A DNA stretch of 64,000 nt from a candidate division WWE3 bacterium (lineage in GTDB: Bacteria; Patescibacteriota; WWE3; 2-01-FULL-39-13). The position numbers are program-made. Where the stretch lies: positions 115,005-179,004 of the forward strand of contig CALRDH010000001.1 in the NCBI GenBank assembly GCA_943354835.1. The letters run 5' to 3'. Every line of letters begins with the position of its first letter. Position 1 is the stretch's first letter. Positions 6,001 through 9,000 of this stretch are shown here, in pieces.

Positions 6001-9000
6001 TCAGAAATTGTCATATTTTGTTTCCAGTTAGCGAGTAAGTATTTCATGAGTTTCTTTTAGCTAAATTTGCCCTTATTTCACCGACCAATTTTGGTAGATT
6101 CTCAAGATGAGAATGGTGATATCTGTATCCTACACTATTTAATGCTGCGTATACATTCGGAATATTCTTATAAATTTCTTCAGCATATCCGCACGAAATT
6201 AGGCACCTAGGCAAAATTGCTATGTTTAGATCGTCTTCACCTTTTCCCGAATTATCACAACCCATAGGACATCCAGCACATGAAGGATTATTTCTTGGCT
6301 CAACAGTTAATTCTTTATATTGATTTAAAAAGGAATTGTACAAGTTTTCATAATCATAAAAATCACTTAAATCAATGGACCTTGAAGTTTCGATTTTAAT
6401 TCCAAAACCACCTTCTATATTTATAGTTTCCGATTCATTATTTCTGAATGAAAAATAATTTAGTGAATTCAATGCGTGCTTTTTTAAAACGAAATCGTAA
6501 ATTGTTTTATCAAACTCTTTTTCATTTTCTTTTGTGAAAATGACTTCTTTATCGTAAACAGTGACTTTTACGAAGTCTGATGGAGTTCCTAAAATAACAA
6601 TGCCGTCAATTGAAGCAAGATTCATATTCATTGCAATATTTCCACCGCCATATTTTTCAATTACTTTTCCATTATCAAGATATAAAAAACTAGATTTAGA
6701 AATGTATGGAAAAAATCCTGAAAGAGGCCCACAAGTTAAAACCATTGGATTATCTAAGTAATTATCCATAACTAGTTTGTATGAAACAGCAATCCCTCCA
6801 ACATATTTCCACAAATCTTCGTGAATTTTGAATTCAAAGGTTTGTTCTTCAAGATTTATATATAGGATTCGTTTGTAATCAAAGTTCATATTGTGTCAAA
6901 ACAATTTTGTGGACAAATTTGAACTATTTTTTCAGGAAATTTCATGTCTTCGCCATAATCAATCTGTATTTTGTACGCGCTAGGTTTACCTTTTATTGTT
7001 ATTGGAGAATCTTTTGTCCCAAGCTTTTTCTTTTCGTACCTAGATGTAGCAAGAACACAGAGCATACATCCAATACATTTTTGAGGACTTTTCGCAACTA
7101 AATATTTTTTCGGCATTTTAAATTTTCTTGGACAAGACTATCGCCATATCTACAAGTCTATGGGAGTATCCCCATTCATTATCATACCAAGCAAAAACTT
7201 TTACCAAATTTCCACCAACAACACGTGTAAGTAAACCATCGACAATCGAGGAATACGAAGTCTTTAATATATCAGTTGAAACTAATTCATCATTGGAATA
7301 TTTTAAAATTCCTTTAAAGGTTTCTTCTGATTCTGCTTTTTTAAAGGCGTTGTTAACTTCCTCTACAGTTACATCTCTTTTTAAAACGGCTGTGATATCG
7401 GAAATTGATCCACAAACAATTGGAGCTCTGATTGCGACTCCATCAAATATGTTTTCAAAAATTGGCATTGCTTTTGCTGTCGCAATTGCCGCCCCTGTGC
7501 TTGATGGGACTAGGTTCTGCGCGGCCGCACGGCCGCGCCTAGGATCTTTTTCATCTGGACTATCAACAAGGGCTTGAGTTGCTGTATAAGCATGAACAGT
7601 TGTCATTAAGGCTTTTTCTACGCCAAAATCACGAGATAAAATATGCATAACTGGTGTTATACAGTTTGTAGTGCATGAAGCATTTGAAATTAGGTCGATA
7701 TCAACGTCAATATTGTCTGAGCCCAAAACAACAGTTTTAAATCCATCGTCTGATGCTGGAGCCGAAAGTAATACTTTTTTAGCTCCGGCTGTAATATGAG
7801 ACTTTGCAGATTCTGATTTTGTGAAAGCTCCCGTGCATTCTAAAACAACATCTACTGCTAAATCTTTCCATGGAAGTTCTAGTGGATCTTTTGAACTAAA
7901 AAGTGGATATTTTTTGCCATCAACAATTAAAGCTCTTTCTGTGTTAGAAACTTCTTTTTCATATCTTCCGTAAACAGAATCAAACTTTAGTGAATAGGCC
8001 AAAGCTTTAGCGGATGAAAGATCATTAATCGCAACAACGTTTATATTTTCTCCTAAAGCCACTCTTTCAAGAATGATTTTGAAAGCAGCTCTTCCGATTC
8101 TCCCGAATCCATTTATTGCAATATTCATAGTGCGTGGCCAGAAAGCCATTGTTTAAACGCTGGCTCCGCAAGCATTCCAATTTTTCTATCAACTTCTTTG
8201 CCATCTTTAACAATAACCATTGTAGGAATACTCATAATTCCATACTGCCCCGCCTTTGCTTGATCAGTATCAACATTAACCTTTTGGAGTTCAATCTTTC
8301 CAGCAAACTCCGGCATAACCTTTTCAAACACGGGTTTCATCGCTTGACATGGACCACACCAGTCAGCATAAAAATCTAATAAAATAATCATGAATCGATT
8401 CTAACATAAGTGGGAGATTGGATACTTAGAAAATTATTTTTTTGATTTCTTCTTTTTTCGATCCGTAAACCTTACACAAATGTTCAGTAAAATCTAGGGT
8501 GCTAAGTTACAAGTATTGAGGAGACGATTAAAGAGTATCTGAAATCAGACGTTTTAATTTTTAATAGATAAAACCGTAACTATAACAATCACCAACACAT
8601 TCACTGTTGTATAATTGAAGCATGAAATTGCAAGATAAAATTTTCGTGTCCACGGTTGGATTATCATTAGCCTTGGTTTCTTTTTCAGTTTTTTATTACT
8701 TCGTTATATATATTCCTACGTTTAATAAGCATAGAGAGGAGATTCGTAATGCTGAACTTGAAATTAAAGAACAACAACAGACAAAGGAAACCCAGGAAAA
8801 ACAATATTTCGAATTAAAAGAAAAATGTATCGATTCTGTGGAAAAGAGTATAAAAGAATTGGATAACATGGAAGCAGAGGCTCTTAAGGCATGTTGGGTA
8901 ACTGGTGTTTGCAATCACGCCCAGTTAATTCAAGATTTGAGAAAAGACAAACCTGGCGCCGTTGATTGGCGTGACACATCGGTAAAGGCTCTAGCAATTA

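Follow-up and report, generated by a model that had tools for sequence, protein, structure and literature searches.

According to a 2025 review, all known members of the aldehyde:ferredoxin oxidoreductase (AOR) and tungsten oxidoreductase (WOR) family contain a tungsten (W)- or molybdenum (Mo)-bis-metallopterin (PMC12096430). The closest described counterparts of the genes considered here are the class II WORs (viz. WOR5/ASOR of Pyrococcus furiosus, 6X1O, and the GOR of Caldicellulosiruptor bescii, PMC13328260), in which two adjacent genes encode an Fe-S small subunit (WorS) and an AOR-fold large subunit (WorL). A 2026 classification that recognizes 92 WOR clades was restricted to sequences with both the N- and the C-terminal InterPro domains (PMC13328260), and forms consisting of the N-domain only were therefore excluded by design. 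In the literature we found no description of truncated AORs, of GAPOR in Patescibacteria or of tungsten enzymes in WWE3/Katanobacteria; the sole trace is the mention in passing of a "ferredoxin oxidoreductase-like protein" among the electron carriers in a 2013 WWE3 genome paper, which also reports PFOR and a type 3b hydrogenase (PMC3812714). In the present work, we have analyzed a stretch of 64,000 nucleotides from a candidate division WWE3 bacterium (contig CALRDH010000001.1, positions 115,005 to 179,004; the whole stretch is hereafter called the window), which encodes a 281 amino acid (aa) relative of the AOR large subunit (mini-AOR or mini-WorL) and, just upstream of it, a 76 aa ferredoxin-like protein (mini-WorS), both in an apparent operon with glycolytic genes. 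We hold with moderate confidence that this pair is a miniaturized, pterin-free descendant of a two-subunit AOR/WOR enzyme, which works as a two-cluster electron-transfer or redox module.

Results

The mini-AOR retains the N-domain and the cluster cradle of the AOR large subunit

Both open reading frames (ORFs) are located where the original prediction had placed them, and the features of the pair are listed below in window coordinates. Conservation counts refer to 66 full-length members of the mini-AOR family, and the residue numbers of P. furiosus AOR (Pf AOR; 1AOR) were reconstructed from alignment and then verified.

6044-6889, minus strand: mini-AOR (mini-WorL), 281 aa, AOR/WOR large-subunit N-domain and [4Fe-4S] cradle
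6521-6871, minus strand: mini-AOR residues 7-123, conserved first half of the AOR N-terminal domain (Pfam, 1AOR alignment, 66-sequence counts)
6257-6280, minus strand: codons of C204-x2-C207-x3-C211 (PSCAGCPMGC), three of four predicted [4Fe-4S] ligands
6191-6193, minus strand: codon of C233 (LISCGY helix), predicted fourth [4Fe-4S] ligand, equivalent to Pf AOR C494
6113-6115, minus strand: codon of H259, a clade-specific histidine (66/66 family members)
6886-7116, minus strand: ferredoxin-like protein (mini-WorS), 76 aa, single predicted [4Fe-4S] (ORF call, CxxCxxC...CP)
7057-7077, minus strand: codons of C14-x2-C17-x2-C20 of the small ferredoxin (invariant columns)
6910-6915, minus strand: codons of C68-P69, predicted distal fourth ligand and Pro of the small ferredoxin (invariant columns; aligns with "ACPTNAL" of WOR5-S)

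The mini-AOR matches the Pfam model AFOR_N (PF02730/IPR013983) with 48.9 bits (cut-off 29.8) over its residues 7-123, which correspond to model positions 2-131 of 199, and it has no match to AFOR_C (PF01314/IPR001203) at E ≤ 1. In a profile built from 27 relatives, the counterpart of the same residues 7-123 is Pf AOR 7-136, and that of the motif "rnnPsClGCPmGCdk" is Pf AOR 284-297 ("RNKP-CYACPIGCGR"). The N-domain homology and the equivalence of CAGCPMGC and CYACPIGC, both of which had been read from the sequence beforehand, are borne out by these results, as is the loss of the pterin-binding domains. An AlphaFold2 model of the mini-AOR, built without cofactors on the 27-relative alignment, has a pLDDT of 92 and a pTM of 0.91, and Foldseek searches with this model retrieve AOR-family large subunits only (E 2e-11 to 5e-7). 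On the evidence of the partial AFOR_N match, the alignment of the Cys loop and the Foldseek result, the structure of the mini-AOR as modeled is cleanly contained in that of the AOR large subunit. It retains the first half of the N-domain, the helix that follows this domain, the Cys loop and a C-terminal helical segment with C233.

The N-domain segment carries GPLSG (54-58), an invariant P61, S64-K65 and G82-G83. K65, the equivalent of Pf AOR R76, is kept in 61/66 family members, and G82 and G83 (Pf AOR G95 and G96) are kept in 64/66 and 65/66, respectively. The predicted cluster ligands C204, C207, C211 and C233 are present in 66, 66, 65 and 66 of the 66 members. The first three are equivalent to C288, C291 and C295 of Pf AOR in the 1AOR alignment and also to the Cys loop of a group of AOR-like proteins of about 540 aa that is described below. 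With regard to the fourth, mini-AOR residues 225-277 align with 35.9 bits to residues 444-496 of one protein of this group, P0076, whose "LMIGCGY" is aligned with "DSAGLC494" of 1AOR. H259 is also found in the Cys-bearing 540 aa forms (P0076, P0082, P0083, and P0084) and is exchanged for another residue in P0078 and P0081, which lack the Cys; the corresponding residue of canonical AORs is Thr or Ser. A further cysteine, C229, is present in 36/66 members only, and a mechanism similar to that of ferredoxin:thioredoxin reductase, considered in view of the trx gene at the head of the operon, was rejected because no conserved redox-active Cys pair adjoins the cluster.

The pterin-binding half has been deleted

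Relative to Pf AOR (605 aa) the mini-AOR is shorter by about 324 aa, in good agreement with the loss of approximately 300 aa of pterin-binding domains that had been predicted, and relative to its nearest syntenic relatives (538-554 aa) the deletion amounts to about 260 aa. Compared with P0076, the mini-AOR lacks about 167 aa from the stretch that leads from the Cys loop to the helix of the fourth Cys, together with about 40 C-terminal aa. The elements that are deleted or replaced comprise R182/RGGxGA, T243, E313, the D338xxGxD motif, Y427, H448, and K450, and of the second pterin motif (DxxGxC) the Cys survives and the Asp and Gly are lost. We take R76, R182, and K450 to be the phosphate-anchoring positions of the 1995 AOR structure; in the Mg2+/phosphate anchor region of the mini-AOR, K65 and G82/G83 are present, and the R182/A183 region and K450 are deleted. 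In the described enzymes, the cofactor is surrounded by T243, E313, Y427, and H448, the last three of which have been termed "universally conserved" second-shell residues (PMC13328260, PMC12096430), and the backbone of N93 and A183 holds the Mg2+ that bridges the two pterins (PMC12096430).

No partner ORF for domains 2/3 was found in the window or in 46 related loci by tblastn with segments of four full-length relatives; residual similarity to domains 2/3 is not seen in any frame, and matches to full-length AORs are confined to one reading frame. In a scan of the window ORFs, which took in those of 150 aa or more other than two giant ones, there are no W/Mo-cofactor genes and no PFOR or hydrogenase. 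The NCBIfam model GAPOR_Arch (NF040818, cut-off 1300 bits) gives no match to the mini-AOR and scores 18-34 bits for five full-length relatives (three syntenic proteins of 538-554 aa and two sister-clade proteins of about 590 aa). These scores are far under the cut-off, and orthology to GAPOR was rejected on this ground.

The small ferredoxin-like protein resembles the WorS subunit

The 76 aa protein scores 19.6 bits with Pfam Fer4, which is under the cut-off of 21.1, and this model is matched at E ≤ 0.01 by 8/14 members. The pattern C-x2-C-x2-C...C-P occurs in all 46 ferredoxin-like ORFs recovered by tblastn, which come from 46 of the 48 mini-AOR loci, and in two further ferredoxin-like ORFs beside 540 aa forms. 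For the two loci that tblastn missed, which were read by eye, L039 keeps the motif and L026 has C-x2-C-x2-C but C-V in place of the distal C-P. Every mini locus thus has a ferredoxin-like ORF, including the locus closest to the window (L052), where a 76 aa gene is found in this position; the fifth Cys of the protein is clade-specific. The ligand pattern and the length are those of a single-[4Fe-4S] ferredoxin (CxxCxxC...CP, about 60-90 aa), as had been predicted. The protein is probably not a generic ferredoxin, and in this respect the prediction needs to be modified in favor of a WorS-like protein. A search of the PDB with a profile of 14 members returned the following matches:

9mqx_E: Fe-S subunit of bifurcating AOR, E 8e-5
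8e9g_I: NuoI, E 2e-3
6x6u_B: WOR5-S, E 2e-3
6x1o_B: WOR5-S, E 1e-2
8c0z_C: AorA, E 2e-2

WorS-type subunits of AOR/WOR complexes account for four of the six best matches. The small ferredoxin aligns to the N-terminal ~70 residues of WOR5-S; its CxxCxxC and its terminal CP fall on the same positions there, and it has none of the ligands of the remaining WOR5-S clusters. These E-values are marginal, but the enrichment of WorS-type chains among the matches suggests that the small ferredoxin derives from a polyferredoxin small subunit (WorS) of which one cluster remains.

Full-length relatives occupy the same slot

The highest scoring relatives other than mini-AORs are AOR-like proteins of 538-554 aa (P0076, P0081, P0082, P0083, and P0084; 108-131 bits), and genes of this type fill the same pgk-(fdx)-X-LCP-holA-sortase slot. 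The loci are as follows (coordinates within each locus):

L047, 1135-2751: AOR-like gene, in the order pgk-ferredoxin-AOR(538)-LCP-holA
L048, 6001-7653: AOR-like gene, in the order ferredoxin-AOR(550)-LCP-holA-sortase
L050 and L051, 6001-7623: AOR-like gene, in the order pgk-AOR(540)-LCP-holA-sortase, no ferredoxin
L049, 95-1759: AOR-like gene

In the 540 aa loci the LCP gene directly follows the AOR-like gene. The AFOR_C matches of the 538-554 aa proteins are weak (52-92 bits). P0076 and P0082 have kept the four Cys, T243, E313, Y427, G341, and D343 and have lost R182, D338, H448, and D489, and all four cluster Cys have been lost from P0078, P0081, and P0099. These proteins look like a possibly non-canonical WOR clade in which the tungstopterin and cluster residues are in decay to different extents. 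The presence of full-length relatives in the same slot, together with the conservation of the mini form, indicates that the mini pair arose by reductive evolution from a two-subunit WorS-WorL enzyme.

In a sister clade of proteins of about 590 aa, the gene for P0092 (L054) is overlapped at its start by a 164 aa polyferredoxin gene (4514-5008), i.e., in small-before-large order. The contexts of P0086 and P0092 are non-glycolytic, and an ancestral glycolytic role is not supported through this clade; given these contexts and the low GAPOR scores, an ancestral role in the oxidation of glyceraldehyde 3-phosphate (GAP) is no more than a possibility suggested by gene position. It was also observed that one sister-clade member is followed by a ThiS/MoaD-like gene of 75 aa (L053 2576-2803) and that "RHSHL" replaces the canonical H448/K450 region in this clade.

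The mini form recurs across species-level genomes and is under purifying selection

A word-index search identified 38 relatives of the mini-AOR, almost all of them 279-296 aa in length (one is a 203 aa fragment), with identities down to 33%. An exhaustive profile search recovered about 35 representative clusters (50% identity) of 270-302 aa at >169 bits, followed after a clear score gap by full-length AORs (538-620 aa) at ≤131 bits. In a genome scan the mini-AOR was detected in 43 species-level genomes, labeled as WWE3, Patescibacteria or, generically, Saccharibacteria. In comparisons of the window with L052 (98% identical) and L004 (81% identical), the ratios of nonsynonymous to synonymous substitution rates (dN/dS) are, respectively, 0.050 and 0.091 for mini-AOR, 0.027 and 0.046 for the ferredoxin, 0.120 and 0.149 for tpiA, and 0.070 and 0.106 for LCP; gap was compared with L004 only (0.051). 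The mini-AOR is under strong purifying selection, tighter than that on tpiA, and both genes of the pair are strongly constrained and translationally coupled through an ATGA overlap.

The existence of full-length AOR-like genes (538-554 aa) at the orthologous position in related lineages, which the original prediction had regarded as a sign of an assembly or frameshift artifact, is the one point in favor of reading the mini-AOR as an artifact or a pseudogene. Against this, the same ORF of 279-302 aa is intact in 43 species-level genomes and in many independent assemblies, its dN/dS is 0.05-0.09, its AOR similarity lies in one frame with no trace of domains 2/3 in any frame, and the ORF downstream of it encodes a bona fide triosephosphate isomerase (TIM; 149 bits). 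Such a reading, whose probability is virtually nil, is refuted by the recurrence of the form, by selection, by the frame evidence and by the intact tpiA. The mini-AOR is neither an artifact nor a decaying remnant, and the earlier description of it as "degenerate" does not hold for a protein with these dN/dS values and with four Cys that are each kept in 65-66 of 66 members.

Gene order and glycolytic context

The other genes of the locus, whose families were assigned with Pfam and NCBIfam, are as follows:

8125-8391, minus strand: trx, short thioredoxin, 88 aa, first gene of the operon (PF00085, 84 bits)
7118-8149, minus strand: gap, type I GAPDH (TIGR01534, 386 bits, cut-off 367; Gp_dh_N and Gp_dh_C)
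5373-6047, minus strand: tpiA, triosephosphate isomerase (PF00121, 149 bits)
4288-5376, minus strand: LCP, LytR-CpsA-Psr protein (PF03816, 119.5 bits)
3597-4298, minus strand: holA-like ORF, 233 aa, between LCP and sortase (position and weak orthologue matches)
2745-3569, minus strand: sortase, 274 aa

The trx and gap genes overlap by 25 nucleotides (nt), gap and the ferredoxin gene are separated by 1 nt (TAA-A-ATG), and ATGA overlaps are present at the ferredoxin/mini-AOR, mini-AOR/tpiA, and tpiA/LCP junctions. A promoter and terminator scan of the region, the counts of which were at or below the shuffle expectation, found no terminator-like site in the trx-tpiA stretch; the sole such site on the minus strand is located downstream, inside the holA-like ORF (3770-3755). 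The operon of trx, gap, tpiA, and LCP that had been proposed is upheld by this arrangement. The nearest relative of the whole gene block is a metagenome-assembled genome labeled "candidate division WWE3" (70-92% aa identity per gene), which places the window in a Patescibacterium of the WWE3 (Katanobacteria) type.

The genes ferredoxin-miniAOR-tpiA-LCP are contiguous in every mini locus, and the commonest spacing between mini-AOR and tpiA is -4 nt. The tpiA gene comes after the mini-AOR in all mini loci and never after the 540 aa forms, a linkage that could be due to one ancestral rearrangement or to functional coupling. The trx gene is found upstream in most loci and stands directly before the ferredoxin gene in two (L003 and L044). 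In the window's clade (L001-L014) and several distant loci the gene upstream of the ferredoxin is gap, and in 23 loci (L015-L018, L020-L026, L030-L034, L036, L038-L042, and L045) a short pgk (~327-359 aa) is found close upstream of it. The order trx-gap-pgk-S-L-tpiA (S and L being the small and large genes of the pair) looks ancestral, and since pgk lies between gap and the ferredoxin gene in these 23 loci, the pair has been inserted between pgk and tpiA; the predicted insertion between gap and tpiA describes the window but not these relatives. Because pgk is directly upstream of the pair in the same loci, the mini-AOR is not a substitute for PGK, and this candidate role was rejected. A typical bacterial PGK has about 390-400 aa; the PGKs of this lineage are short, at 327-359 aa (L024 4693-5730; L018 4772-5755; L050 4917-5996).

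In the window's clade pgk is missing from the gap-pgk-tpiA position (the 7116-7118 junction of the window). No pgk is present in the 64-kb window, and none of the best 120 PGK matches is on the 592, 245, 201, or 141 kb contigs that carry mini-AORs of this clade; TIM, GAPDH, and PGK have been reported as nearly universal in genomes of the candidate phyla radiation (CPR) (PMC7304191). It is synteny only that connects the ferredoxin/mini-AOR pair with glycolysis.

Other observations on the window

The thioredoxin of the window (88 aa) matches its Pfam model from position 21 on, its orthologues have 88-91 aa, and it is a conserved N-terminally short form. The LCP gene, the holA-like ORF and the sortase gene form a conserved block with the holA-like ORF in the middle; this 233 aa ORF has no Pfam match in the window, and orthologues in the same position match DNA_pol3_delta_C weakly. 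Elsewhere the window encodes the large chain of a ribonucleotide reductase, which has TSCPD as its C-terminal domain (16597-19122, minus strand), RecA-RecX-RNase Y (11257-14700), FtsH, and SmpB, a content that is typical of the Patescibacteria housekeeping set. Two ORFs on the plus strand are very large (46928-50746, 1272 aa; 51791-55873, 1360 aa), and further long ORFs are without a Pfam match (23213-25057, 27788-29119, 43424-44995, and 45501-46871).

Discussion

The results presented here are, in our view, accounted for best by descent of the pair from a two-subunit enzyme, in which the 76 aa gene would be a reduced WorS encoded just upstream of a reduced WorL of 281 aa. Of WorL, the mini-AOR retains the predicted cluster-holding half, which is turned towards the electron carrier (viz. 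the beta-sandwich of the N-terminus, the CxxCxxxC loop and the helix with the fourth Cys), and the 76 aa protein retains one ferredoxin-type [4Fe-4S] site. The parts that bind or surround the tungsten-bis-pyranopterin all appear to have been excised, for which reason no aldehyde oxidation by the AOR mechanism is to be expected. Co-expressed with trx, gap, (pgk), and tpiA, the two proteins may form a heterodimer with two [4Fe-4S] clusters that passes single electrons between low-potential carriers (e.g., PFOR-reduced ferredoxin) and a partner, or that reports redox state. This proposal is close to the "electron-transfer remnant or new mini-AOR-fold protein" of the original prediction, which is supported in part, namely in the homology, the cluster loop, the domain loss and the operon, and not in the degeneracy, the artifact test, or the suggested link to GAPOR.

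A number of points weigh against this proposal. Cluster binding is predicted from the sequence and from a model built without cofactors, and for the all-Cys cluster of the 281 aa protein a structural or sensory role is just as conceivable. The analysis brought to light neither a donor or acceptor of electrons nor a catalytic partner. Since some of the 550 aa members of the clade (P0078, P0081, and P0099) are without any of the four Cys, the function that the clade shares may not be a redox function. The similarity of the small protein to WorS is marginal (E 8e-5 to 2e-2) and comes mostly from the CxxCxxC region, and NuoI scores alike. In a neighbor-joining tree based on 117 shared columns, the bootstrap support is 4% for monophyly of the mini forms and 24.5% for mini and 540 aa forms against the outgroup, and descent from the 540 aa forms is argued from parsimony and synteny rather than demonstrated. 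Lastly, the search for genes of W/Mo cofactor biosynthesis covered the 64-kb window.

Some of the same observations can be read differently. The pair may be a sensor of redox, oxygen or Fe-S status, or a structural or regulatory subunit, the cluster state of which modulates a partner, most plausibly a glycolytic enzyme of the same operon such as TPI, or takes part in thioredoxin-linked regulation of GAPDH; a reading of this kind draws on the presence of tpiA after the mini-AOR in every mini locus, mostly with a 4 nt overlap and never after the 540 aa forms, on trx, which is the first gene of the operon in most loci and adjoins the ferredoxin gene on its upstream side in two, on the lack of an evident catalytic partner, and on the clade members that keep the fold without the cluster, which suggests a protein-protein role of the N-domain. 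A dedicated ferredoxin partner with a dN/dS of 0.03 fits electron transfer better, the ligands are all Cys with no conserved redox-active pair beside them (C229 being a Cys in 36/66), and adjacency is weak evidence because these compact operons mix unrelated functions (LCP, holA-like, and sortase); we regard a sensory or regulatory role as possible, although on the unlikely side.

Other readings assign catalysis to the mini-AOR. It is improbable, in our estimate, that it is a pterin-independent catalyst in which an exposed [4Fe-4S] face and phosphate-binding residues act on a phosphorylated three-carbon intermediate with the ferredoxin as redox partner. The retention of the N-domain half of the pterin-phosphate site (K65 in 61/66, G82/G83 in 64-65/66), the invariant clade-specific H259 that co-varies with the cluster, the invariable location of the genes among gap, pgk, and tpiA, and a constraint tighter than that on tpiA are in keeping with it, but the ligands are all Cys, so that none of the irons has an open site of the kind known from aconitase and radical-SAM enzymes, the AOR family offers no precedent, the conservation of the R76 equivalent may reflect packing against the cluster, and gaps in the pathway hint at no substrate, TIM, GAPDH, and PGK being reported as near-universal in CPR (PMC7304191). 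A specific version, to which we assign a very low probability, has a pterin-independent active site (the cluster face laid bare by the excision, K65, the G82-G83 loop, and H259) carry out, together with the dedicated mini-ferredoxin, a redox or dehydratase-type reaction on a phosphorylated triose of lower glycolysis; if true, such a new triose-phosphate enzyme would account for the strict linkage with tpiA and for the fact that pgk is found at some of the loci only. It is most improbable that the pair is still a W/Mo pterin enzyme, with a reduced pterin site or with domains 2/3 supplied by a separate protein, that acts as a GAP:ferredoxin oxidoreductase beside GAPDH. The glycolytic operon, the retention of K65 and the GG loop, and the existence of a bacterial GAP-oxidizing WorLS enzyme (CbGOR; PMC13328260) speak for it, but AFOR_C has no match, the shell residues are deleted along with the R182 region, the second motif has lost its Asp and Gly, the window and the loci searched hold no ORF for domains 2/3, no W/Mo cofactor genes are among the scanned window ORFs, GAPOR_Arch remains at ≤34 bits for full-length relatives against its cut-off of 1300 with no match to the mini-AOR, and the WWE3 genome paper is silent on Mo or W metabolism (PMC3812714).

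If the pair is a miniaturized AOR/WOR descendant, the electron-transfer half of an AOR (N-domain, [4Fe-4S] and a one-cluster small subunit) can persist alone under strong selection, and the pair would constitute a minimal scaffold for an AOR-type cluster and the docking of ferredoxin. The relatives form a natural deletion series, from about 590 aa through decaying forms of about 540 aa to either 550 aa without the cluster or 281 aa without the pterin domains, which should help in studying how reduced genomes dismantle cofactor-dependent enzymes or turn them to new uses. As a conserved unknown in the middle of a core glycolytic operon, in an uncultivated lineage that has very few redox proteins, the pair is probably of consequence for the energy metabolism of WWE3.

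Comparison with known systems

The described system with the greatest similarity to the pair is the class II WOR, to whose electron-transfer half it would correspond in working and in origin, and with which it shares the large-subunit N-domain and the [4Fe-4S] ligands, the placement of the small gene next to the large one, and, in the case of WOR5-S, a place among the best PDB matches of the small protein. An association with glycolysis is common to the C. bescii GOR and the pair (in the latter by gene order). The class II large subunit has about 600-650 aa, whereas the mini-AOR has 281 aa and lacks domains 2/3, the tungstopterin and the second-shell residues; among the features by which a protein is assigned to WorL, it has AFOR_N and the four Cys and is without domains 2/3 and the pterin cofactor shell. 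Likewise, WorS of the class II-V WORs carries four [4Fe-4S] clusters (IPR017896-type, about 150-190 aa), whereas mini-WorS, at 76 aa, has a single cluster motif. A specific relationship to GAPOR was not detected at the sequence level, and the pair is co-encoded with a classical type I GAPDH, which the GAP-oxidizing, ferredoxin-reducing activity of GAPOR/GOR replaces together with PGK.

AOR and FOR of P. furiosus (1AOR, 1B25) share with the mini-AOR the CxxCxxxC...C motif, the basic residue equivalent to R76 and the GG loop, and ferredoxin is the expected partner in both cases. Unlike these enzymes, the mini-AOR is predicted to be without pterin and W, the residues of the dimer-interface metal site fall in its deleted region, and the second half of its N-domain is remodeled, with loss of RGGxGA and with H259 present. 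The 538-554 aa AOR-like proteins of Patescibacteria have the slot, the "LIxCGY" fourth-Cys helix and "GY.Y.H..LE" in common with the mini form but differ from it in that domains 2/3 are kept, some have T243, E313, and Y427, some are without the four Cys, and tpiA does not follow. A precedent for a scaffold of this kind is provided by NuoG/Nqo3 of complex I, which descends from a molybdopterin enzyme, has lost the cofactor and still carries Fe-S clusters; NuoG/Nqo3 differs from the mini-AOR in belonging to the DMSO reductase/formate dehydrogenase-type superfamily and in that its pterin domain has been retained but is empty, rather than deleted. In comparison to these systems, the novelty of the pair is that it represents a lineage-specific, conserved AOR derivative in which the cofactor domains are deleted and the small subunit is co-reduced, a form not described for this enzyme family.

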